From a virus (lineage: Duplodnaviria > Caudoviricetes), in the IMG/VR virus record IMGVR_UViG_2881096153_000005, positions 1 through 64,000 of that record: a stretch of 64,000 nt of DNA. The stretch is one strand, 5' to 3'. How positions within the stretch are numbered: the first letter of the stretch is position 1; each line of letters begins with the position of its first letter. The translations under genes and the position numbers were made by a program. Positions 26,405 through 52,093 of this stretch are shown one piece after another. The notes beneath the pieces are model-generated. The model saw only the letters and a program-made list of their open reading frames with translations. It searched no databases and was not told the origin of the DNA.

Positions 26405-26957
26405 GTAATTGATTTTGAAACTTGGAAAGAGAGTCTAATGCTAATTTTTGTTGGCTTACAACTTGCTTTAATGAATCAATTCGAATTTCTACATTTTTTT
26501 GGGAGTTGCTATTTGCTGATGTCTGCCATAGGGCAATTATAGATACGAATACAGCTAAGGCACTAATGAGTGGATTTATCCACCAGAGTTTTTTTGATCT
26601 AAATTCAGCCTCAATTGCTTGGCTTTCCAATAACGATTTTGCCTTTTTCTCATTTTGTCGCCGCGTAATTTCACTTTTGATAGTTACCCAGCCGTCAACT
26701 TTTATTCTTTCACCCAAAGTTGTGTATCTGAAAGAGTTATCAAGGCGATGTTCCAAGATTTCATATTGAATTAGCCAGTCAATTACAGATCTTGCTTCCG
26801 CCTTGGTAATTGAAAAGTTATGAGCAAAGAGGTAATAAAACTGTTCTTCTGTAGTTTTACCTCCACCATTAAAATCTTCAAAAAAGGCAATATACTTTTG
26901 AAGTGATTCATCCTCAGCTGGTAAATCCATTTCAAATTTTTCGTTTTGCTTCTTCAT
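26337..26957 (-). CDS. Moron: membrane-anchored hypothetical protein
   Basis: Start at 26957 (MKKQNEKF); one TM (LWWINPLISALAVFVSIIALW); overlaps both int and the tail gene. Confidence 0.55.
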   Translation of the reverse strand: MKKQNEKFEMDLPAEDESLQKYIAFFEDFNGGGKTTEEQFYYLFAHNFSITKAEARSVIDWLIQYEILEHRLDNSFRYTTLGERIKVDGWVTIKSEITRRQNEKKAKSLLESQAIEAEFRSKKLWWINPLISALAVFVSIIALWQTSANSNSQKNVEIRIDSLKQVVSQQKLALDSLSKFQNQLLTPPKAPPPKAPAGADQSAAPR

Positions 26958-28176
26958 TTTTTTCTTCCGTTCCATAAACTTTATCAGCAAATGCATCATT
27001 TTCCTCTCTTTTGGCCGCAGCAAAATAGTTTTCCGTAACTGAGATCGATGAGTGATCCAATGCTTCCGATACAGCATAAATGTCGCCGGTTTCTTTTCTG
27101 GCAATCTCAGCGAAGCTATGCCTGGCCACATGCATTGAAAAATGTTGTATGCCAGCCTGAGAAGCTATTTTTTTGAGATTTTTCCCAACGATTGAGTTGG
27201 TGGATGATATGATTTTAAACCATTCATCTTGCGTAAATCGGCCTTTCTCTTTCCCTTTAAGGAAAGGAAAGACATAATCATGGGGCTTGACGCCAGGTAT
27301 AGAATAAAATTCAAGTATTTGAGAAGCCCGCTTGTGCAGTCGTATCGAACGTACTTTACCTGTCTTGTTGGCAACGTACTCATATCTGTTTTCTCGAATC
27401 TGTGACCAGGTAAGTTGTACCACGTCAGCGAAGCGGATCCCCTGCATGTAAAAGGAAAAGAGAAAGATATTTTTCGCATGAAAGGCATTGATATCTTTCC
27501 GGATGTCAAGATTGTAGATTTTCTCTATTTCTTCAATACTCAGCTTTACCCGGCTCGACTTCTGTTTTTTGAGCTTGATCATGTCAAAAGGATTTCCTCC
27601 CTCCGGAGTAAAATGACCAGACTCAACAGCTTCATTATAGATCCCTCGTAATTTCGAGAAGTTAGATTGAATGGTATTTGCGCTATTCCCTTTTCCCTTT
27701 AAGTGTTGTCGGTAGCGATTCAACAGCTTGTGATCTATTTCACCAAAGGGCAACTCCTGATTTTTAAGGTAATCTTCCAGTTTTTTAACAACGGACGTCT
27801 GGCCAGCTCTCGACGCTGGGCTATCCAATGCGGCTATATGTGCCTTCGCAAATGTAAAGAAATTGTCACCAAGCAGATTAAATTTGACGGCCTTGATCAA
27901 GGTTTGAACGGTGGTTACCCTACCCTTAACAGTATTCTTTAGATAGGCTTGTTCCAGTTCAATCCTTTTGGCCTTTAAGATGCTGTTCTTCTGCCGATAT
28001 TGCGGATCGCTCTTTCGTATTTCTTCTTTTTCAGGATTCCAATCTTTGGAAAGTACAGAGAATCCTGCACCTACTCTTTTGAGTTTTTTGTTTTGAGTGA
28101 TCCTAATTTGGACAGTTTGGGTACCATCCTTTTTAACGTAATTATCCAGTTCGATGTGAAATGTGATGTTGCTCAT
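26932..28176 (-). CDS. int: Tyrosine integrase (Bacteroidota arm-binding type)
   Basis: MSNITF..DGTQTVQIRITQN arm domain; GIRFAD, HVARHSFA, LDHSS..TENY catalytic residues. Confidence 0.93.
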   Translation of the reverse strand: MSNITFHIELDNYVKKDGTQTVQIRITQNKKLKRVGAGFSVLSKDWNPEKEEIRKSDPQYRQKNSILKAKRIELEQAYLKNTVKGRVTTVQTLIKAVKFNLLGDNFFTFAKAHIAALDSPASRAGQTSVVKKLEDYLKNQELPFGEIDHKLLNRYRQHLKGKGNSANTIQSNFSKLRGIYNEAVESGHFTPEGGNPFDMIKLKKQKSSRVKLSIEEIEKIYNLDIRKDINAFHAKNIFLFSFYMQGIRFADVVQLTWSQIRENRYEYVANKTGKVRSIRLHKRASQILEFYSIPGVKPHDYVFPFLKGKEKGRFTQDEWFKIISSTNSIVGKNLKKIASQAGIQHFSMHVARHSFAEIARKETGDIYAVSEALDHSSISVTENYFAAAKREENDAFADKVYGTEEKNEEAKRKI

Positions 28177-28190
28177 TGAAAGTAAAAAAT

Positions 28191-28414
28191 TCTGAAACTT
28201 TTTCTGAAACTTTTCTGAGTACTGGGCACTTTCAGAAAACACCTAAAAAAGAAAAAACCGCTCAGAAATGAATTCTGAGCGGTTATCAGTCTTGTCACGT
28301 AGTGCCTGATGGCAATAAAGTGACCCATAGGGAGTTATAGCCAATCCAAGGTTATATACTGTATTTCAGGACATTAAAGAACTTTCAAAATAATTCCATG
28401 AAACTTCCATGAAA
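28191..28414. other. attP-like junction: arm-type repeats flanking a tRNA-3'-like core
   Basis: TCTGAAACTT x2 (28191, 28203), TTCCATGAAA x2 (28394-28414), core GTGACCCATAGGG (28320-28332). Confidence 0.55.
28256..28284 (-). terminator. Intrinsic terminator downstream of the att core
   Basis: Perfect 12-bp stem AACCGCTCAGAA/TTCTGAGCGGTT with a U-tract on the minus strand. Confidence 0.7.
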
Positions 28415-32729: not shown

Positions 32730-34223
32730 ATGAGTAGACTAATCCGCATTGAAACCTCGGATGCGTATTCGAGGTTTCTGAACGCCTTTCGCCAGTACAA
32801 TGCTAATTGCCCAGTGGAGACCCACGAGCGCAAACGTACCACGAAAGATGGAGACGCTTTCACGCAGACGGTTCCGAGGAAAGTTGGGATATTAAAAGAA
32901 AGCCTGAAAGTCACCTTTTACAACGTCCTGACGGAGTACATCTATGCCTACAATACGTCGATGAAGAATATGCCGGAAGGCATGTACACGCAAGCCGACC
33001 CGCCGGGCGTGCTGACGAACTGCGTTCACCTGGCCTGGCTGTGCGATTGCAGCGACCGAACCGTTCGGAATCACCTGGATCGTTTGAGAGAATTGGGCTT
33101 CATAAGGACGAAATTTCGTGGCCGGAAACACGATTTTCAGCTGTGGATAAGTAGCGAAATCCTGTTTGGCGGAGAGGGCGAAAATTTTGAAAAAATGCCC
33201 CAAAACGGCCTTCCTGAGGGGGTTTCTAAAAATTTTCCGCCTAATAATACTCACAGAGAGTATATAGAAAAAGAAAAAGGGAATGCGGATTTGTTGATTA
33301 AACACGGAGAGAACATTTACGGAGAGAGGGGTCGGACTGACCAGGGGGACACAGCCCCATCAAACGCTTCGGAGAATGCCGAGCTGGAAGTACAGAGAGG
33401 GAGAGGTTCCGGCGGGGGGCGCGGCGAGATCGTGGCCGCAAACGCCGAAATGCGCCAAAGCCGGGCCAATGAAATGCTTTCGAAGCGAAATCCACGAACT
33501 CCACGCAATTTGCACCCGCGGCTCCGGGAAATGCTCGTCGAATTTTGGCTTTATGCCTGGAAAGTAGTCTACACTGGACGGGATTTCAGCCACGAACAAC
33601 AGGAAAAGGCCATGCTTGCGATCATGGCCGGCGTTTACAACAACTTCTCCCCGGCCCGATCAGAGGCCGAATGGGTCGATTTTCAGACTTACCAACTGGG
33701 CAAGCTCGACAAGGCTGCCCGCTACTACGACCACCATCCGGATGCTTACAAACCTGATCCCTATGCGGTGCAGGTAGCTGGAAAGGGCTATTTCGATGCC
33801 GAAAACGTGAAAGGTTTTATCGGGATTGATGCCTGGGTGAAGAAAGATGCCCTGAAAGATCTGAATAACAAAGCTGCCTATGCCGAACGGAAAGAAGCGA
33901 AGATCCGCCGGTGCGAAGGTCTGCTCCGGACTGCCCGGCGTGATTTTGAAAAGCTGCATGCTGGTATTAAGCCCAGGAAAGAAGTGGCCGAGAAGACCGA
34001 AATCGGGCTGTTTCAGTACTGGAAGGTGATCATGGAAGCGCAGGGAGACGCCTGGCTTCGGAAGTTTGCGAGCCAGTACATCGAGCAGAAAGGAAAGAAT
34101 TTTGAACCGCCTAAGTATCTCAAAAGCAAACGTCTGCGCTACAAAGCTGGCGAAATGAAGCAGGAAGTCGTGGTGTATGTCGAAGACTACATGAATGATG
34201 GAGAAGGCTACTATACCGAGTAA
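32730..34223 (+). CDS. Putative replication initiator / origin-binding protein
   Basis: wHTH LAWLCDCSDRTVRNHLDRLRELGFI, flexible linker, helical C-terminus; position in the early operon. Confidence 0.6.
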   Translation: MSRLIRIETSDAYSRFLNAFRQYNANCPVETHERKRTTKDGDAFTQTVPRKVGILKESLKVTFYNVLTEYIYAYNTSMKNMPEGMYTQADPPGVLTNCVHLAWLCDCSDRTVRNHLDRLRELGFIRTKFRGRKHDFQLWISSEILFGGEGENFEKMPQNGLPEGVSKNFPPNNTHREYIEKEKGNADLLIKHGENIYGERGRTDQGDTAPSNASENAELEVQRGRGSGGGRGEIVAANAEMRQSRANEMLSKRNPRTPRNLHPRLREMLVEFWLYAWKVVYTGRDFSHEQQEKAMLAIMAGVYNNFSPARSEAEWVDFQTYQLGKLDKAARYYDHHPDAYKPDPYAVQVAGKGYFDAENVKGFIGIDAWVKKDALKDLNNKAAYAERKEAKIRRCEGLLRTARRDFEKLHAGIKPRKEVAEKTEIGLFQYWKVIMEAQGDAWLRKFASQYIEQKGKNFEPPKYLKSKRLRYKAGEMKQEVVVYVEDYMNDGEGYYTE

Positions 34224-35704: not shown

Positions 35705-35853
35705 AACCAAACATTCTTCGGTCGGTTTTCCGGGAATTCTGAAAAACCCCTCCGGAGCCTGGTCAGATTGGCCCAGATCAGCCCCCGCAGCACCAGGTGC
35801 AGCAGCTGGGCAACCAAATAATGTTCTGTTTTCCAAATAATCAATTTTTAGTT

Positions 35854-36360
35854 ATGACTTACACAATTATTGCCGAAAGAGGTGACACCAAATTAGCTTT
35901 AATAGGTCCTAGCCCTGTAACAACATTAAACCGAATTCCCCTTTTCGAAATACAGATTGATGGTGACGAGTCTTTTATGAACCTCACAAAAGATGAAGCC
36001 AAAATGCTAGTAGATGTGCTATTGCCATGGATTGACGAAGGTAATTCAGGGAAATTGAGAGGTCCAATAAAAAGACACGCCCTAAAAACTGATAAAGGTT
36101 ACTTTGATAGAGTTTGGGCAGGCCAAAAAAACTTTGAATTGCGAAAAAATGACCGAGCCTTTCAGGTTGGTGATACATTACTTTTAAGAGAATATGATCC
36201 GGAAAATAGTAGCTATTCCGGTAGGGAAATTCTTGCTGGGGTCGATTTTATTTTTTCATCGCTGCCAGGTCTACAAGATGGGTACTGTATAATGAAGATT
36301 TTTATCGAAAAACAATACAAAGTTACTCCGGTAGAGATAGAAGGTAGGTTAACCAATTGA
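35854..36360 (+). CDS. DUF3850/ASCH (PUA-like) domain protein
   Basis: LKTDKGYFDRVWAGQKNFELRKNDRAFQVGDTLLLREY. Confidence 0.8.
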   Translation: MTYTIIAERGDTKLALIGPSPVTTLNRIPLFEIQIDGDESFMNLTKDEAKMLVDVLLPWIDEGNSGKLRGPIKRHALKTDKGYFDRVWAGQKNFELRKNDRAFQVGDTLLLREYDPENSSYSGREILAGVDFIFSSLPGLQDGYCIMKIFIEKQYKVTPVEIEGRLTN

Positions 36361-40369: not shown

Positions 40370-41251
40370 ATGCTTCACCGTTTTTTTTCTGGCCCCTGGG
40401 CAATGGAACCCCGCCTGCACGACCGCCTGGCACCCTTGGTGCTGAGTGGCCGGGTGGATTTGAATGCCGCCAAACTTGCGCGCGATCGCCGCTCTCCCCG
40501 CTTTGAAATTGTTGCGCTCGATGCGCCAACGAAAAATGCGGTCGGGAGTGGATCTGCCTATCGGTACCTGCCTAAGTTGGGCACGAAAGAAGGGGTGGTT
40601 CCAATCATCCCGGTGATTGGTACCATGACCCGCTATGGCGATATGTGCAGCTACGGCACCGAGGATATTTCGGCGTGGATTCTGGAAGCAGAAAACGACC
40701 GCTCGGTGGTTGGAATGGTGCTCGAAATCGACTCGGGGGGTGGTGAAGTGAATGGCACCGAACTGCTGGCCGAAGTGGTGCGACAGAGTTCCAAACCCGT
40801 AGTGGCCTATGTCACAGGAATGGCGGCAAGCGCTGCCTATTGGGTGGCAAGTGCTACGCAGTGGATTGTGATGGAAAGTGCCACGGCTTCGGAAGTGGGC
40901 TCCATTGGCGTGCTGAGCATGCACGTGGACATGACCAAGGCTCTGGAAAAACAGGGAATGGCCGTGACGATCATCCGGGCGGAAGGCTCGGAAAACAAGG
41001 CCTTGTACAATTCTGTCGAGCCGATCGACGCTGCGATGATTGCCGCCGTGCGCGCAGAGATGAAGCCGATTCGGGAAGCCTTCGAGGATTCGGTGCGAGC
41101 TGGCCGGCCAAACATTTCGGACAAGGTATTTGAGAGCAAGGGCGGGATGTTTCCTGCCTCCAAGGCCGTTGGGCTGGGCATGGCCGACGAGATTGGATTT
41201 CTTGGAAATGCAGTGGCGAAGGTGCTCGAACTGGCTCAAAAAGGAGAATGA
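40370..41251 (+). CDS. S49 (SppA-type) head maturation protease
   Basis: LEIDSGGG, AASAAYWVAS, VGSIGV. Confidence 0.9.
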   Translation: MLHRFFSGPWAMEPRLHDRLAPLVLSGRVDLNAAKLARDRRSPRFEIVALDAPTKNAVGSGSAYRYLPKLGTKEGVVPIIPVIGTMTRYGDMCSYGTEDISAWILEAENDRSVVGMVLEIDSGGGEVNGTELLAEVVRQSSKPVVAYVTGMAASAAYWVASATQWIVMESATASEVGSIGVLSMHVDMTKALEKQGMAVTIIRAEGSENKALYNSVEPIDAAMIAAVRAEMKPIREAFEDSVRAGRPNISDKVFESKGGMFPASKAVGLGMADEIGFLGNAVAKVLELAQKGE

Positions 41252-43475: not shown

Positions 43476-43682
43476 ATGGCTAAGAAGAAAATGAAAATAT
43501 GGCAAGTCCGGCCCGGTGTGGGCCGGATTGCCTTAGAAAAACAGGGTTCACGCATTGTGCTCAGCAATGATCTGCCGCAGGAGCTGCTTGCCGAACTGGC
43601 AAAGGAGAAACTTGCCGCAGGATTTTTGGAGCAGGTGTCTGTACCCATAACCGAATCTACCGATGTCGAAAGCGAAAGTTAA
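43476..43682 (+). CDS. Small hypothetical protein
   Basis: Operon position. Confidence 0.55.
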   Translation: MAKKKMKIWQVRPGVGRIALEKQGSRIVLSNDLPQELLAELAKEKLAAGFLEQVSVPITESTDVESES

Positions 43683-44124
43683 TGCGGCGCTTACCGCCCT
43701 GGACAAAGCCGCCAAAGGTGCCTATAAGGTGCTGAACGAAGTGGCTGATAATACCTACGAAGGCTCCCCCGCCGAAGCCGAACCTACGAAGCATGCGTAT
43801 GAGATCAGTTTGCGGCTTCGCAAGCAGCTTGAAATCTACGAAGCCAATGCCCAATACGACGGCATGTCTCCGGAAGAAATCGAGCTAAAAAAAGCGACCG
43901 ACCTGGCCGAAGCTCGCGCGAAACTGAAAGCCGAAGCAGCTGCAAAGCTGGCCGAATTGAAGCCGAAGGCGGTGAAAGAAGTGGTGATGGAGGAAGATCC
44001 TGACCATGATGCGATGCCAGTGCCGATTAGTGATCCGGAGCCGGTGCAAGATCCTGAACCGGTGCAAGAACCTGAACCGGTTGGTGATCCTGAACCGGTG
44101 CAAGATCCAGAACCTTCGGCCTAG
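43663..44124 (+). CDS. Hypothetical protein with C-terminal PEPV(Q/G)(D/E) repeats
   Basis: About five 18-bp tandem units near 44030-44115. Confidence 0.65.
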   Translation: MSKAKVNAALTALDKAAKGAYKVLNEVADNTYEGSPAEAEPTKHAYEISLRLRKQLEIYEANAQYDGMSPEEIELKKATDLAEARAKLKAEAAAKLAELKPKAVKEVVMEEDPDHDAMPVPISDPEPVQDPEPVQEPEPVGDPEPVQDPEPSA

Positions 44125-44142
44125 TATGAAAAGCTATCTATG

Positions 44143-44176
44143 AAAAACAGCCTTACGAGCGTAGGGCTGTTTTTTT
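44143..44176 (+). terminator. Intrinsic terminator
   Basis: AAAAACAGCCTT/AGGGCTGTTTTT stem with T-tract. Confidence 0.75.
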
Positions 44177-44218
44177 GTGTCCTGTTGTATAGGGAAGGCT
44201 AGTGTGTATATTTGTAAC

Positions 44219-44358
44219 GCTAACGATTGATAATTTTCTGGGGTACAAGTGTGGACATGCAATGGAATCAGGGCATGGCCGGTAAGCGTGCGGTTGTAAG
44301 TACCGCACCACTTGTACTCCGTTATTGGATTATCGGTCGTTAGCAGCGACTTACCGGC
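44219..44358 (+). ncRNA. Structured multi-stem RNA, c4/CI-like antisense candidate, with a downstream complementary target
   Basis: 16-bp closing stem, 12-bp inner stem, two hairpins, unpaired GCCGGTAAG complementary to CTTACCGGC at 44350; begins just after a TATATTTG box. Confidence 0.7.
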
Positions 44359-44373
44359 TTATATTTCTCCCCG

Positions 44374-44712
44374 ATGATTCCTGCTCCTGTTGGTTTTGAA
44401 AGCCTGAATGAATTTCTCCATCGAAAAAAAATTGATGCAGAATATATCCGCAGCTCTTTGGAATCGTACCTCGGTAGCTATGATCACCGGCAGTGTGACT
44501 CGGACGATCTCGAACTTGATCATCAGGTATGGGCCTATCGACAGATCATTCATGAATTTGTTTTGATTCTCTACAATGACAGCAGCACAGCAGATACAGA
44601 AGCAGAAGGCAGCGCTGAGCCTGATGGAAATGAAAGTAAAGGCAGGCCGAGCACGCCCGGAGCAGCTCGACGCCCTGCGCAGCCAACTGGCCACCCTGCA
44701 AAAAAACGCTGA
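44374..44712 (+). CDS. Hypothetical protein downstream of the structured RNA
   Basis: ATG 15 nt after the target site; overlaps the next ORF. Confidence 0.5.
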   Translation: MIPAPVGFESLNEFLHRKKIDAEYIRSSLESYLGSYDHRQCDSDDLELDHQVWAYRQIIHEFVLILYNDSSTADTEAEGSAEPDGNESKGRPSTPGAARRPAQPTGHPAKKR

Positions 44713-45232
44713 GCAAAAACCCCCATCGCCCGATCGGGCAGCCCCCACTACCCCAACTCCCGAAAAAACCGCAGCTGAGCGCCCGAAGGGTGAAGCCTAT
44801 GCCGAAAAGCAGGCCGAACTAAGCACGGAAGCCAACGAGCTACGAAAGGAACAGGCGAAACTTAGCAACTTGCTGCACAAGGTGTCGCCCCACGTGGATT
44901 GCTACGAGTTGACGTCGCGTATCTACGAGTTGCAGGTACAGATTGAAGGACTGTGGGATGAAAAAAAGTACATCGAGCGAAACGGCCTGGATACGGGTGG
45001 CACGTTTCGTGATAGGCCAGAAAAAGTAGTGCCTGCCAAATCGCTGGACGATGTGCAGCACAAGGCCGTGCTGACCGTTGAGCTGCAACGGCTCCGGGAA
45101 AAGCGCTCGAAAGTGACAAGAAAGTTGGAAAACCCGAAATCGGCAGAATCGAAACGGGCAGAATGGAGCATCGAGCTCGCGCAGACGAATGCACGCATCG
45201 AGGAGCTGACGGCTCAGCGGTATGTACTTTAA
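44576..45232 (+). CDS. Coiled-coil hypothetical protein
   Basis: 218-aa helical ORF. Confidence 0.65.
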   Translation: MTAAQQIQKQKAALSLMEMKVKAGRARPEQLDALRSQLATLQKNAEQKPPSPDRAAPTTPTPEKTAAERPKGEAYAEKQAELSTEANELRKEQAKLSNLLHKVSPHVDCYELTSRIYELQVQIEGLWDEKKYIERNGLDTGGTFRDRPEKVVPAKSLDDVQHKAVLTVELQRLREKRSKVTRKLENPKSAESKRAEWSIELAQTNARIEELTAQRYVL

Positions 45233-45379
45233 GGCTTGCCCCGCATTTTTCGCCACTCTTTCCATTCTCTATTGGTGGTGAAGGTCGGGAGCGGGAGCAG
45301 TAATTGAAACATTGCCCAAAAGTACCATTTGAGTATTCGCCAGGTGCGATTTTGTTTTTTTACATTTTTACTGTTAGCC

Positions 45380-46000
45380 ATGATTAATGAATTGTTTGTA
45401 ACACAGAGGGTTGCTATTTCGGAATTGGTGCCCCACGTTAAGAATCCGCGGAAGATCAAAGCTACTGAAAAACAGAAACTTTGGGAGCGGATCCAAAAAT
45501 TTGGCATGATCGGTATTCCCGTCCGGGATGCTGATAATACACTGCTAAGCGGGAATCAGCGATGTGAAGTGCTCGCATCGCATGGCCTGGGTGATTATGT
45601 CATCGACGTGCGCACGGCAGTGCGTAAACTCACCGAGCAAGAATTGCGGGAGGTGATGATGATCGAGAACAGCCACGCCGGAGAGTTTGATATGGAGGTG
45701 CTGAAAGCGGAGTTTGACGAATACATCGACCTCGATAGCTTTGGCCTAAGCCTGGACGAGCTGGCAAAGGACCTGACCGAAGCGGGCTCGGAACTCGCAC
45801 CAAGCGAACCGGAGCTGCCTATTGTTGCGAAATTCAGCGAAAAGTACGACTCCGTGGTGATCATCTGCCGAAACGAAATTGACTATAATCACCTGGCTGA
45901 AAAGCTGGGACTTGATCGCTCGCAGTGCTATAAGAGCAGCAAGGTAGGTACCACGCACGTGCTTGATGCGAAACAGGTGATTGAGGTTTTGACGAAATAA
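45380..46000 (+). CDS. ParB/Srx-like protein of the phage DNA-modification type
   Basis: ISELVPHVKNPRKI...LLSGNQRCEVL...MMIENSHAGEFD; C-terminal FSEKYDSVVIIC; start at 45380. Confidence 0.8.
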   Translation: MINELFVTQRVAISELVPHVKNPRKIKATEKQKLWERIQKFGMIGIPVRDADNTLLSGNQRCEVLASHGLGDYVIDVRTAVRKLTEQELREVMMIENSHAGEFDMEVLKAEFDEYIDLDSFGLSLDELAKDLTEAGSELAPSEPELPIVAKFSEKYDSVVIICRNEIDYNHLAEKLGLDRSQCYKSSKVGTTHVLDAKQVIEVLTK

Positions 46001-46054: not shown

Positions 46055-46795
46055 ATGAAAGAAGTTAAGATAATAATTCCCTCGCACAAACGGGCGACCC
46101 GCGTCCGGACTACGAGTGCGGTCTATGGTGCTGCACTATGCGTCGAAGAAAGTCAGGCGGATCTGTACCGAAAGTGCAATCCCGGGATTGAGATCATAAC
46201 GCACCCTGACAACGTGATCGGGCTGACCCGGAAACGGGACTGGATGATCAGGAACATTGGTGATGTGTTTATGCTCGATGATGACATTGAGCACCTGAGC
46301 AGGATCTATACCGAACCGGGTGAAGAAACGGTGGTAGATCCGGAAGTGGCGCACGATATAATCCAGATGACTGCCCACGCTGCCTGGCAGGCGGGCGCTT
46401 ATTTGTTTGGGTTCAGCTCGTCACCCACCCCAATTTCCTTTAACAGCCTGAACCCCGTACAGCTGAGCGGCTACGTGACCGGCTGCGCCCATGGCGTTCT
46501 GACTGGCTCGAAGCTTTGGTACAATGGTGATATTCACTGTAACGAAGATTATTGGATATCGCTTCTTAATGCGCACCATCACCGCCTGATCTGGAAGGAC
46601 ACACGGTTCTATTGGGCACAAAAGGACACTTTCGTGAACCGTGGTGGCCTGGCTGAATTTCGTAACGTGGAAAATGAGGAGAAAGATTTTCTGCTACTCC
46701 GAAAGGTGTTTGGTGACGTGGTTGAGTTGCGAAAGTCGAACGGAAAGTCTAAATTGGCACATGCGTTTCAGAAAAGTTTGAGACTGCCGTTTTAA
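46055..46795 (+). CDS. GT-A fold glycosyltransferase, TAGT/GREB1-like
   Basis: IIIPSHKRA, GLTRKRDW, FMLDDDI, EDY, NRGG. Confidence 0.7.
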   Translation: MKEVKIIIPSHKRATRVRTTSAVYGAALCVEESQADLYRKCNPGIEIITHPDNVIGLTRKRDWMIRNIGDVFMLDDDIEHLSRIYTEPGEETVVDPEVAHDIIQMTAHAAWQAGAYLFGFSSSPTPISFNSLNPVQLSGYVTGCAHGVLTGSKLWYNGDIHCNEDYWISLLNAHHHRLIWKDTRFYWAQKDTFVNRGGLAEFRNVENEEKDFLLLRKVFGDVVELRKSNGKSKLAHAFQKSLRLPF

Positions 46796-46959: not shown

Positions 46960-47059
46960 AAAAATAAATGGTTCGTGGTGTTGTTAATCCGTTCTGTCGG
47001 GAGATCTTTATATCAGTTAACAATCACATATTTAACCTTTTAACTCCAATTAAGCAATG
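46960..47059 (+). repeat. Promoter/start cassette copy 1 (copy 2 at 48660-48758)
   Basis: AAAAATAAATGG..GTTGT..ATCCGTTCTGTCGGGAGAT.TTTATATCAGTTAA..ATCACATA..TAACTC(C)AATTAAGCAATG in both copies. Confidence 0.85.
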
Positions 47060-47767
47060 GAAAACGTAAGCACAATTTCGCAAAATGAAGTAGTAGTAGC
47101 CACTCGCCGGAACAAAGATCGTTTCCTGGAAGCGACCGGAAAATCAGAACAAGAGTATTACGCCTGGGCTACCTTAGTCGGGCAGCGTATGCACATTAAC
47201 AAACTAGATGGGCTATTGTGTGCGAAAATCGGAATCTATACGGTTGCCCACCTAATTCACAAGCAAACGCAACTGCCACAGGGCATTGAGCAAAGCGAGG
47301 TGCAGGCGTACCTGATCGAAAACAGCAACAACCCCTATGAGCTCGCGCAGATTTGGTTGAGCCTAAAATCCGACGTCGAGAATTGGGTAAGCAAAGAAAG
47401 CATCCTGAATGAGTGGTTGACCGGCATCCGGAAAGAAGATTTTGAGGCGCACGGTGATCCCAATCATGCTGCGGATGTAAGCCGGGCGTGGTGGAAAAAG
47501 GACGCTGACGGTTTGGATGGTATTTTGCAAGAAATAAACAGTATGGAATTTTTGAATACGGAAATCAGCCTGAGCGATGCCATCGAGTTCATTCGGGCCA
47601 ACCGCCCAGGGCGGTGGATTTGCCCCGCACTTACCGCGCAGAAATTAGTCGAGAGCCGGTTCAAGACCTTGACCACGTTCAACATCAAGGACTACTACGT
47701 AGAGCACCTGTTGAAAATGTGCCGAATCGAAACGGAACTGATTGCAGACGAAGATCTGCCGTTTTAA
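47057..47767 (+). CDS. Hypothetical protein
   Basis: 236-aa ORF in its own promoter-terminator unit. Confidence 0.7.
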   Translation: MENVSTISQNEVVVATRRNKDRFLEATGKSEQEYYAWATLVGQRMHINKLDGLLCAKIGIYTVAHLIHKQTQLPQGIEQSEVQAYLIENSNNPYELAQIWLSLKSDVENWVSKESILNEWLTGIRKEDFEAHGDPNHAADVSRAWWKKDADGLDGILQEINSMEFLNTEISLSDAIEFIRANRPGRWICPALTAQKLVESRFKTLTTFNIKDYYVEHLLKMCRIETELIADEDLPF

Positions 47768-47827: not shown

Positions 47828-48622
47828 ATGAGCAATATGCAAGACGCCCCGCGGCAAGTGAGGCCGATGGTGGATGTACTGAAAGAGTTTGGGGAGTACC
47901 GTTTCGACCCGGCAGACGTTTTCCGGGATTTTATAGATTATGGCATTGGCTGCCTGCTGGTCCACGGTGATCTGGACATGGGCAAACGCCTGCTGGATAA
48001 GTATGGAGCCGATTATGCGAAGTTCGGCACGATGCTCCGGGCGTGGATTGGGATTCTGGATAAGGAAGTGGCAGGCGATGGACAATGGTTTGATGCTTTG
48101 GGCTCGCTGTATGAATATTTGGCCAGCCAAAACAAACGCAGTTGGTTGGGGCAGTTTTTCACCCCTGCCTCAGTCTGCGACCTGATGACCATGCTAACGA
48201 TCCAAAACATAGAAGGGACTGGCAAGCGGGTGAATGATCCTGCCGTGGGAAGCGGCCGCACGCTGCTCTCCATCAATAGTCGGTGGCCAGGCAATTATAT
48301 GTTTGGCGAAGACATCGACCCGATTTGTGCCAAGATGGCGGCGCTGAATTTGGCCTTTCATGGTGCCCAGGGACAGATTAGCTGTTTGGATTCGCTGCGC
48401 CTTAACAGCTGGAAATTTGGTTACGAGCTTAACCCCTACCACCGTCACGGAGCGCCGCCGATTCCGCACCTGCTGCCGATTACGGAAGAAGGCAGCGTGG
48501 TGATGCAACACTGGCGGCAGCGAGTGCCCGACGTGGTTCAACAGCCGGTTGAAAAAGTGGCCAAACCTGCCCCGATACCAGAACCCAAACCTGTGTTTAC
48601 GAGCCAATTGAGCTTGTTTTAG
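47828..48622 (+). CDS. N6-adenine DNA methylase-like protein (HsdM-type N-terminal half)
   Basis: GQFFTP, DPAVGSG, GEDID, DSL; no clear NPPF motif. Confidence 0.7.
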   Translation: MSNMQDAPRQVRPMVDVLKEFGEYRFDPADVFRDFIDYGIGCLLVHGDLDMGKRLLDKYGADYAKFGTMLRAWIGILDKEVAGDGQWFDALGSLYEYLASQNKRSWLGQFFTPASVCDLMTMLTIQNIEGTGKRVNDPAVGSGRTLLSINSRWPGNYMFGEDIDPICAKMAALNLAFHGAQGQISCLDSLRLNSWKFGYELNPYHRHGAPPIPHLLPITEEGSVVMQHWRQRVPDVVQQPVEKVAKPAPIPEPKPVFTSQLSLF

Positions 48623-49983: not shown

Positions 49984-50526
49984 ATGAATGAATTAGAAAA
50001 AATGCCTCCTGGGGACTTCCTGCCCGAAAAAGGCAAACACAAGCTCGACAAGTTCAAGGACCATCTTGTTGCTCAGGTGCCACTATCTGCCAGGGATCAG
50101 GAGTATTTTGAAAAAATGAAAAAAGCCTGGTCGTGGGCGACAAAGATGTTCTCGCCACAAAAAGTAGTCGAGATGCTGCACAACGAGTATGGCCACGAGA
50201 AAACCCACGCCTATCAGATTCTTCGGGATAGTTATGCGCTGTGGGGTGATGCCTATGACCTGGACAAAAAAGGAGCGGCAAAGGTACTCGTCGAGTCTGC
50301 GTATGTTGCCCTGCAAATTGCAGTACGTGACAAAAACGGTGAACTGATCCTAAAAGCGGTCAAGGAGCTGCGCGAGCTCCAACAAATTGATAAGCTCGAA
50401 ACAGCGATTTCTCCTGAGCAGGCCATGCCGCCAGGTACGCGAGTGTATGTCTTTACTGCCCCCACGCAAAATGAGGGTACTGGTTCTGGAAAGGAGGTGG
50501 AAGATGGGGAATATAGTGTTGAATAG
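49984..50526 (+). CDS. Putative terminase small subunit
   Basis: Helical protein directly upstream of and overlapping terL; start at 49984. Confidence 0.55.
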   Translation: MNELEKMPPGDFLPEKGKHKLDKFKDHLVAQVPLSARDQEYFEKMKKAWSWATKMFSPQKVVEMLHNEYGHEKTHAYQILRDSYALWGDAYDLDKKGAAKVLVESAYVALQIAVRDKNGELILKAVKELRELQQIDKLETAISPEQAMPPGTRVYVFTAPTQNEGTGSGKEVEDGEYSVE

Positions 50527-52093
50527 TCGAGAGATACAGATCAACGTCAATCCTGCGCAGGGTCGGTTTCTTCATGCTTTGATGGAGAATGAAGCCGATT
50601 TTGAGAAAAACGGCAAAATGTATCAGACTGGTTTTCGAGCAACTTTCAACGGTGGGCGTGGATCCGGAAAAACCAATGTGCTAATGAAATTGCTGGCGGA
50701 AGTGGCATTTGCCCTGCCTCGATCTAAGGTTGGGCTTGCCTCCATGACCTATCGACACGTGCAAGACGTTGTACTTTCACAGAGCCGAAAGGTTTTCGAG
50801 GACTATGGCTTGTACGAATATGACCCCAAGGTTCGCCCATGGGGTCACTACACACTCAACCGCCGACCGCCCGAAACTTGGTGGCATCCCTACGAAGGGA
50901 TTAATACGTACGAAAACTGTATCTGCTTCAAGAACGGATGTACGATCGTATTTCTTTCCGCCGATCGCCCGGACACAGCACGTGGATTGAACCTCGATGT
51001 GCTGCTAATGGACGAGAGCTTTAAGTTGAAAGAGGACTTCTATAATACCGTATTGCGTAAAACGGTACGAGCTAACAAGTATTTGTATGCGGATCCACGT
51101 CCGCACAGGAAAGGTTTCAACCATCCACTTCATTGGCTCATTGCCGATTTCACGTCCGCAGCATGGACCCCTGAACAGCAGTGGATCTACCGCACCGAGG
51201 AGCTCATGAAGAAAGACCCGAAGCGCTACTATTTTCAGGAAGCGACTGCCTACGATAACCTCGATAATTTACCAGGGAACTTCATCGAAACAGAACGTGA
51301 ATCCTGCGCAGACGAAATGACCTTTGAGGTCGAGATCCTGAACCGGCGCGTGATCAGGCTGAACAACGCCTATTATCCATCGCTAAGTACGAGCCGTCAC
51401 ACTTACAATGAAATGTACGACTATCAGTTCGATGACAAGTCTCGACTGTATGTTCACAAGCGTATCGACTATGATGAAAACAAGCCCCTCGAAATCAGCT
51501 GCGATTTTAACGCACGGTTTACCTGTATGGTTATTGCTCAGGAGTTTCCGAGCGAGCTGCGTTTCATAGATAATATCTTTGTCAAGCGTGCCAATACTAC
51601 CCTGGTTGAAGAAATGGCTACTATATTCTGTACCAGGTACAAGGCCCACAAAAAGAGGGTGCTGTTTTTATACGGTGATAGTTCTGGAAAGAAGGGTGAT
51701 CCTGGTAGAACTACTACCCACTATCAACAACTAATCCAAGTACTTAGAAATAATGGGTGGTCGATTAAGGACTGCGTACAACAATCCTACCCTCCTTACA
51801 AAATACGCTACCGTGTAGTGAATACTATCCTATCTGAATCTAAGCCCTCTATACCTCGTATACGTATCAACGAGATAGAGTGTAAGTCACTACTCATTAG
51901 CCTCCAGCATGCACCAATCATTAGTGACAACTTCGAGAAAGACAAACGTTCAGAGAACAATGAAAAGCTTGATCAGCAATATGCAACACACTTAAGCGAT
52001 GCATTCGATTACATTGTATTCAAGAAGTTCTCACGTATTGTCCCAATCACAAGCTCAGGATCAAGGCGCATGAGAACATCCAATGCCGCTTAA
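50504..52093 (+). CDS. terL: Terminase large subunit
   Basis: GGRGSGKT Walker A, LLMDES Walker B, SCDFN and HLSDAFDY nuclease motifs; start at 50504. Confidence 0.88.
   Translation: MGNIVLNSREIQINVNPAQGRFLHALMENEADFEKNGKMYQTGFRATFNGGRGSGKTNVLMKLLAEVAFALPRSKVGLASMTYRHVQDVVLSQSRKVFEDYGLYEYDPKVRPWGHYTLNRRPPETWWHPYEGINTYENCICFKNGCTIVFLSADRPDTARGLNLDVLLMDESFKLKEDFYNTVLRKTVRANKYLYADPRPHRKGFNHPLHWLIADFTSAAWTPEQQWIYRTEELMKKDPKRYYFQEATAYDNLDNLPGNFIETERESCADEMTFEVEILNRRVIRLNNAYYPSLSTSRHTYNEMYDYQFDDKSRLYVHKRIDYDENKPLEISCDFNARFTCMVIAQEFPSELRFIDNIFVKRANTTLVEEMATIFCTRYKAHKKRVLFLYGDSSGKKGDPGRTTTHYQQLIQVLRNNGWSIKDCVQQSYPPYKIRYRVVNTILSESKPSIPRIRINEIECKSLLISLQHAPIISDNFEKDKRSENNEKLDQQYATHLSDAFDYIVFKKFSRIVPITSSGSRRMRTSNAA

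Follow-up and report, generated by a model that had tools for sequence, protein, structure and literature searches.

The closest described counterparts of the RNA analysed here are c4 of the phages P1 and P7 (Rfam C4, immI) and CI of P4, RNAs which come from leaders and pair with sites on the same transcript. c4 has a length of ~77 nt, lies upstream of an antirepressor, depends on RNase P for its 5' end and uses two loop-target pairs together with an upstream copy of the a1/b1 type; CI, which is cut by RNase P and PNPase, pairs with seqA and seqC, resulting in premature termination. Two further groups offer a comparison: the SAM-II and preQ1-II pseudoknot leaders, in which the ribosome-loading region includes the 3' strand of the pseudoknot, so that folding competes with initiation, the core being conserved and the peripheral helices being variable, and HK022 put (phage-encoded) and Bacillus EAR, structured RNAs located just after the promoter of a long operon.

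The window, i.e. the whole 64-kb stretch of DNA that was analysed, is part of a prophage and carries at 44219–44358 (+) a folded leader RNA of ~140 nt, composed of P1, a hinge, P2, P3 and P4, whose P3–P4 junction strand (J3/4) is complementary to a target upstream of the next start codon. A sequence-only reading of the locus had assigned this element to c4/CI-like RNAs. At the Rfam gathering score no c4-type match was obtained for the 64-kb window. At E ≤ 10 the region 44050–44500 gave noise matches only and no c4 family, the weak hits at this permissive threshold aligning to the upstream terminator hairpin plus U-run, and at E ≤ 1 no family match was found for the loci of seven relatives; the assignment was therefore not borne out by comparison with C4, c4-2 and c4-a1b1. 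The leader RNA is not a member of the c4/CI family. Instead of two single-stranded loops with two targets and an upstream copy, only the J3/4 pairing covaries, and instead of standing in an immunity region with an antirepressor the leader lies between head genes and the genes for a ParB-like protein, a TET-associated glycosyltransferase (TAGT) and the terminase.

Like c4, the RNA belongs to the leader of its own complementary transcript in a temperate phage, and a short single-stranded segment pairs just upstream of the start of the first downstream gene. However, there is one 11-bp pairing, the RNA is nearly twice as long and contains a three-way junction, its 5' end coincides with the predicted transcription start so that no RNase P processing would be needed there, its target is only 2 nt away from the closing stem, and it belongs to the late head/packaging region. 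With CI one may compare the U-run that comes after a GC-rich pairing in roughly half of the members; many members lack it, the site is single and adjacent, and the genomic context differs. The SAM-II and preQ1-II leaders share with the present RNA the position of the pseudoknot 3' strand in the initiation region, which here follows from the covarying pseudoknot and its distance to the start codon, as well as the conserved core with variable periphery; they show neither sequence nor structure homology to it, and the leader RNA has a much longer, hinged basal rod, is found in phages only and involves no Shine-Dalgarno sequence. put and EAR, likewise without homology, share the position behind the promoter but need no pairing next to a start codon. 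No description of the leader RNA was found in literature searches.

Fold and flanks of the leader RNA

The features of the locus, all on the + strand, are as follows.

44143–44176: intrinsic terminator, read from the sequence (stem 44148–44169, 7-U tract 44170–44176)
44179–44214: putative promoter (GTCC and a −33-like TTG at 44185–44187, 19-nt spacer, TATATTTG at 44207–44214)
44219–44234/44329–44344: P1, 16 bp with 2 G·U; two further U·G pairs extend it to 44236/44327
44219–44236: P1 5' strand (partner 44327–44344), basal 5 bp conserved in sequence
44237–44239, 3' side 44321–44326: hinge, an asymmetric internal loop at the P1/P2 boundary
44240–44251/44309–44320: P2, 12 bp with 1 G·U
44256–44277: P3 hairpin (stem 44256–44260/44273–44277), distal part variable in length
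44278–44288: J3/4, the pseudoknot 5' strand (9 + 2 nt)
44288–44294/44302–44308: P4 stem, read from the window sequence
44289–44307: P4 hairpin, 5–6 bp stem with the 7-nt loop 44295–44301
44345–44346: linker from P1 to the pseudoknot 3' strand, 2 nt (AG in the window)
44347–44358: pseudoknot 3' strand (CG, invariant bulged A at 44349, 9-nt target 44350–44358)
44359–44373: U/C-rich spacer between pseudoknot and start codon
44374–44712: small ORF, the first gene after the leader RNA in all members

Folding of 44215–44376 (RNAfold) gave P1–P4 as the structure of minimum free energy (−65.8 kcal/mol, z = −5.55), and none of 200 shuffles was as stable. The helices are identical to those proposed in the sequence-only reading, whose coordinates for P1–P4, junction, target and promoter box were all correct against the sequence. 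In the nested fold J3/4 is single-stranded and the target strand is mostly unpaired; a conserved competing partner or hairpin for the target strand was not found in nested folds. All homologues (31/31) carry a bulge or internal loop near the midpoint of the rod, as a rule with more nucleotides on its 5' side. The same alignment of 31 sequences revealed conservation of the basal 5 bp of P1, of the linker and of GAC around the bulged A. The linker is AG in most members, GG in type B and in L072, L064 and L073, and AA in L069.

The P4 loop reads U-G-N-R-A-G-U in all members of the 31-sequence alignment, with variation at the N and R positions only, and the stem below it occurs as GCGG/CCGC, GGGG/CCCC, GCCG/CGGU or GUUG/CAAC. 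By its sequence the loop looks like a T-loop or GNRA motif. A mimic of the tRNA T-arm was considered and rejected: P4 stacks on an 11-bp helix, not on a 7-bp one, and ARAGORN found no tRNA- or tmRNA-like gene.

On the 5' side, the terminator closes the upstream head-gene unit, whose last gene is located at 43663–44124, and a T-run of at least five just upstream of the leader RNA was observed for 28/31 homologues. P1 begins five nucleotides after the TATATTTG box, and in 22 of the 31 homologues a TAnnTTTG-like box has its end 3 nt upstream of the start of the covariance model. Because the box matches TAnnTTTG, the Bacteroides-type −7 consensus, we infer a promoter with transcription starting at about 44218–44220; the kept spacing agrees with the earlier prediction of a transcript that begins right after this box. 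Between terminator and −7 box sits a GTCC-n-TTG-n-GGGAAGG-like block (44179–44199 in the window), which may be an activator site; it recurs in L002, L004, L018, L019, L023, L025 and L031 and is confined to the window's subtype. As a repeated late-promoter signature GTCC...TAnnTTTG was discarded, its 2 matches in the window corresponding to chance expectation.

On the 3' side, the distance from the pseudoknot 3' end to the start codon amounts to 3–8 nt in 19/31 members and to 14–26 nt in most others (14–19 nt in the window's subtype). The first 8 nt after the pseudoknot contain on average 5.1 U, compared to 25% U upstream of the other start codons of the window. Behind the GC-rich end of the pseudoknot a U-run of at least 4 follows in 52% of the members and one of at least 5 in 29%; in many it is absent.

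Distribution and compensatory changes

In total, 31 distinct homologous sequences were aligned with the covariance model. MAFFT RNA alignments misaligned the variable stems, and alignments from the covariance model were used instead. blastn identified a 74%-identical paralogue on contig C11 of the source genome (a 43.6-kb viral contig in IMG/VR) and three other genomes. Two successive covariance models added three further copies in the source genome, giving five: C42 (the window), C11:406159–406301, C39:75567–75689, C39:411687–411809 and C9:92493–92614. These copies reside in related prophage-like elements of common synteny (head protease ... RNA ... small ORF ... TAGT); two share one pseudoknot version and three another. 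The host genome (5.83 Mb, 44 contigs) belongs to the Spirosomataceae, a family whose genomes here include Persicitalea jodogahamensis and a Spirosomataceae MAG. Within this family the covariance model matched 16 of 151 sampled genomes (12 of 51 genera), among other Cytophagales 1 of 141, and in a class-wide genome sample a single weak match was obtained, still complementary in the pseudoknot.

Further members, which are rare, came from metagenomes by a DNA pattern scan; the strict pattern hits L011–L016, L029 and L034–L043 were dismissed as GC-rich chance matches lacking target and stems. blastn of 43600–45300 against 50,697 phage records gave no match, and pattern and protein scans of IMG/VR returned only the paralogous prophage of the source or a near-identical genome. 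One sequence, L005:1513–1659 (−) of genome G005, was left out of the final counts, being a chimera with a broken P2: an L004-type 5' half meets an L019-type 3' half within the conserved core, and P2 can no longer pair although the pseudoknot is kept. The chimera suggests that phages recombine at this core.

The decisive observation concerns the pairing of J3/4 with the tail behind P1. In the window 44278–44286 is exactly complementary to 44350–44358, the target ending 15 nt before the ATG at 44374. These 9 bp are followed by the invariant bulged A and by 2 more bp (44287–44288/44347–44348), resulting in 11 bp in total. The covariation counts rest on 15–16 sequences, whereas the pseudoknot versions were read from the 31-sequence alignment. 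Among 16 sequences compensatory changes were found for 17/18 pairs of P1, 14/14 of P2, 3/5 of P3 and 2/6 of P4 (plus G·U). In the pseudoknot 4/11 pairs changed on both sides and 4 on one side only, with 99.4% of its cells paired. For the whole structure this amounts to 40/54 pairs with compensatory changes and 96.1% paired cells, compared to 72% after shuffling and 35–43% with partners slid; the whole-structure pairing measures were reached by 0/500 shuffles.

About ten sequence versions of the pseudoknot exist among the 31 sequences, and all of them stay complementary. In the variable half of the helix the 4-nt versions comprise UAAG/CUUA, UGAG/CUCA, UGAG/CUUA (G·U), AAAG/CUUU, GAAG/CUUU (G·U) and UUGG/CCAA; the longer ones comprise GAUUGG/CCAAUC, GGGGAAG/CUUCCCC and GGCAGG/CCUGCC; a further version carries an extra pair on both strands, and the second extension pair can be G-C, A-U or U-A. 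Compared across homologues, the junction-to-tail pairing is real and is kept by compensatory change. Compensatory change in homologues had been named in the sequence-only reading as the check on its fold, and with a covariance model built from relatives it was found in every helix; the same covariation bears out the claimed contact between the junction strand and a site ahead of the next ATG. A second contact proposed there, between the P4 loop and the target, stands in the window inasmuch as GTAAGT and ACTTAC are complementary, but shows no covariation across the family: the loop keeps its sequence while the target changes, and this pairing was rejected. Second or upstream copies of the target, searched in window and genome, were not found beyond chance, exact copies in the genome being limited to the window locus and the C11 paralogue.

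Inverted repeats at the DNA level, bound by the ParB-like protein or the terminase or serving as a packaging or replication signal, might produce some of these patterns, since the locus lies upstream of ParB-like and terminase genes and inverted repeats also covary when the specificity of a dimeric protein changes. Dozens of G·U and U·G cells, however, fit a + strand RNA only and would be A·C mismatches in a cruciform or on the other strand, for which reason we take + as the functional strand. The minus strand of the region folds more weakly (−54.3 kcal/mol, i.e. 11.5 kcal/mol in favour of the + strand). Four nested helices, a bulged pseudoknot and a fixed distance from promoter to P1 are furthermore RNA-like, and L018 retains the RNA without a ParB gene. 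A DNA element is thus highly improbable.

The pseudoknot sequence is conserved far beyond what pairing requires, a hint that a protein or a ligand recognises it or that it makes tertiary contacts. Its near-invariance across phages also bears on a role in immunity, as discussed below.

The late operon and the small ORF

The genes of the window considered alongside the leader RNA are listed below.

26932–28242, −: integrase, ~16 kb from the leader RNA
32730–34223: replication-initiator-like gene
35797–36360, +: DUF3850 domain protein in the early or middle region (PHROG 'RNA-binding protein', E = 4e-26)
40370–41251: S49 head protease
44576–45232, +: coiled-coil ORF, after the small ORF
45329–46000: ParB-like gene
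46055–46795: TAGT
47057–47767, +: 236-aa ORF between TAGT and the methylase-like gene, no Pfam or PHROG match
47828–48622: methylase-like gene
50387–52093: large terminase

Upstream of the leader RNA, tail-like genes and unnamed head-region ORFs extend up to 44124, and between the methylase-like gene and the terminase lies a gene for an MgsA_C protein. The order head protease, ~335-aa protein, Pro/Glu-rich protein, terminator, RNA, small ORF, coiled-coil protein is conserved. Judged by this gene content, the leader RNA heads a late operon and is not an immunity locus. L018 keeps the leader RNA although both ParB and TAGT are absent, which links the RNA with the operon head and its small ORF and not specifically with the modification genes. 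The sequence-only reading had let the RNA control everything from 44374 onward, including the ParB and glycosyltransferase genes; control of downstream genes is reasonable because the target pairing near the ATG is kept by compensatory changes, whereas the two named genes are optional.

No TET/JBP-type oxidase was recognised in the modification gene cluster. ParB-dependent phage thymidine dioxygenases are reported in a 2026 PNAS article (PMC13229309), on the basis of which the ORF at 47057–47767 may be regarded as a dioxygenase-type candidate. Going by its PHROG match, the DUF3850 protein may be a phage-encoded factor that binds RNA. In another element, of type C, an AbiGi-like gene (abortive-infection antitoxin family, E = 5e-24; L074:16873–17868 (−), corresponding to ~420.9–421.9 kb of G000:C39) sits downstream of the modification genes.

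The protein of the small ORF consists of a ~65-aa three-helix core, an acidic linker and a variable basic tail, and AlphaFold2 modelled residues 1–70 with pLDDT values of 76–89. Comparison with Pfam, PHROG, PDB folds and the Atlas gave no match. Ten relatives were found among 5.8 billion database proteins, and all of their contigs carry the leader RNA directly upstream. The basic tail, rich in Arg, Pro and Ala, is present in about half of the relatives, where it extends 50–140 nt into the coiled-coil gene; in relatives lacking it the small ORF stops right after the acidic stretch. In several loci the small ORF overlaps the next gene.

Against this background an antisense mechanism which resembles that of c4 and CI can be weighed. 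A P1-closed RNA of ~126 nt would be released by RNase III acting on the long rod, by RNase P or by another nuclease, would accumulate, e.g., in the lysogen, and its exposed J3/4 would pair with the target in trans, leading to translational shut-off or premature termination in the late operon and perhaps in that of a superinfecting relative as well. The target lies just downstream on the same transcript, as for P1 c4 and P4 CI, and the host-type −7 box could be active in a lysogen. The accessibility of J3/4 in the nested fold, the existence of distinct pseudoknot versions (two of them in the source genome) and the U-run that roughly half of the members have after the target, given that CI acts by termination, are in line with it as well. 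Besides, a straight rod of 20–35 bp followed by a 2-nt linker would make pairing dependent on processing or on action in trans.

Several observations weigh against this mechanism in addition to the missing Rfam similarity, the single conserved complementarity and the missing upstream target copy. The leader RNA is located among late morphogenesis and packaging genes, far from the integrase and the lysogeny genes, which speaks against the immunity switch of the sequence-only reading. Immunity determinants normally diversify; here, the pairing sequence is near-invariant between phages whose small protein is only ~30–60% identical, and different co-resident prophages share one version (three copies in G003, 2 + 3 in the source genome), which would be unexpected for an immunity determinant and favours a role in cis. 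A purely trans-acting antisense RNA would also leave the conserved P1 base, linker and hinge unexplained. All in all, we regard a c4/CI-like trans mechanism as unlikely.

The leader RNA as a candidate cis gate

The reading which we prefer, at about even odds (a probability of roughly 0.5), is that of a previously uncatalogued cis-acting 5' leader RNA which heads the late operon of temperate phages of the Spirosomataceae (Cytophagales, Bacteroidota) and gates its expression. Since part of it pairs just ahead of the first start codon, the leader RNA probably gates expression of the operon.

According to this proposal, the Bacteroidota −7 box would direct transcription to start exactly where P1 begins, and the hinged rod P1–hinge–P2 would carry the two hairpins P3 and P4. 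The junction strand between them would pair with the 12 nt that follow P1 and the 2-nt linker, generating the 11-bp pseudoknot with its one bulged A. The 3' side of P3, J3/4 and the 5' side of P4 form one continuous strand, so that P3, pseudoknot and P4 can stack into one long helix. With a straight P1–P2 rod cis pairing is impossible across the 2-nt linker; for cis pairing the rod must therefore fold back, and it would do so at the hinge, placing the base of P1 next to the junction. Hinge, conserved P1 base, linker and GAC favour, as far as sequence conservation can tell, a cis pseudoknot over trans action.

Bacteroidota largely initiate translation without Shine-Dalgarno pairing and need an unstructured leader. 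Because initiation depends on such leaders, the folded pseudoknot is expected to block 30S loading on the small ORF, and gene overlap could pass the reduced expression from the small ORF on to the downstream genes. Transcription may also be terminated where the GC-rich pseudoknot end runs into a U-run, as it does in roughly half of the members; attenuation is therefore possible in some but not universal. A trigger, i.e. a phage protein, a ligand or an RNase, would finally open the pseudoknot. Formation in cis, repression and the existence of such a trigger are the steps which we infer beyond the pairing itself.

Several points count against cis gating or limit it, among them the surplus sequence conservation of the pseudoknot noted above. 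The 15-nt gap between pseudoknot and ATG in the window is at the edge of the ribosome footprint, cis formation needs a sharp fold-back of the P1–P2 rod, and the leader RNA may be constitutive instead of a switch, as no competing 'ON' structure was found in nested folds. The lengths of P1 and P2, which were compared as support for the fold-back, did not show a positive correlation (r = −0.4).

The leader RNA could instead play another role: in processive antitermination through RNA polymerase on the long late operon, like put or EAR, as a 5' stabiliser or processing element, as a self-cleaving ribozyme, or as a riboswitch aptamer, the ligand then being related to the DNA-modification genes. In this complex fold, conservation of the bulged A, the 7-nt P4 loop, the P1 base and the linker exceeds the demands of pairing. 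The RNA stands directly after a promoter, behind a terminator and at the head of a multi-gene late operon, P1 is located at the predicted 5' end like mRNA-stabilising hairpins, and the lack of an alternative structure would be accounted for. On the other hand, none of these roles needs the tight, variable-but-short spacing between pseudoknot and start codon, Rfam did not reveal any similarity to put, EAR or any ribozyme or riboswitch family, and the gene content downstream points to no clear ligand. Taken together, such a role is the most serious competitor of the cis gate, though a doubtful one. About equally tentative is a more specific form of the cis gate, in which an RNA-only late-operon gate with a five-helix fold-back pseudoknot, acting in some members as an unconventional intrinsic terminator, would be opened by a small molecule or a phage protein.

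Independently of the mechanism, the comparative data identify a real and well-supported new family of structured RNAs, whose pseudoknot is adjacent to the start codon of a phage late operon. With at least 31 distinct members, covariation in every helix and about ten compensated pseudoknot versions, the level of evidence is that usual for a new Rfam family, and the topology of the leader RNA is unusual. Structured regulatory RNAs of Bacteroidota and of the phages of this phylum are poorly known, and translational gating without a Shine-Dalgarno sequence is an open area. At the head of an operon with DNA-hypermodification genes (ParB-like, TAGT) and the terminase, the leader RNA may time modification and packaging. 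As a compact system of ~140 nt with a single target near the start codon it suits the study of pseudoknot control in Bacteroidota, and it lets one ask whether c4/CI-like logic exists outside the Proteobacteria. If the more specific gate, opened by a trigger, is real, the leader RNA would represent a new class of riboswitch-like elements or riboregulators with a new architecture.
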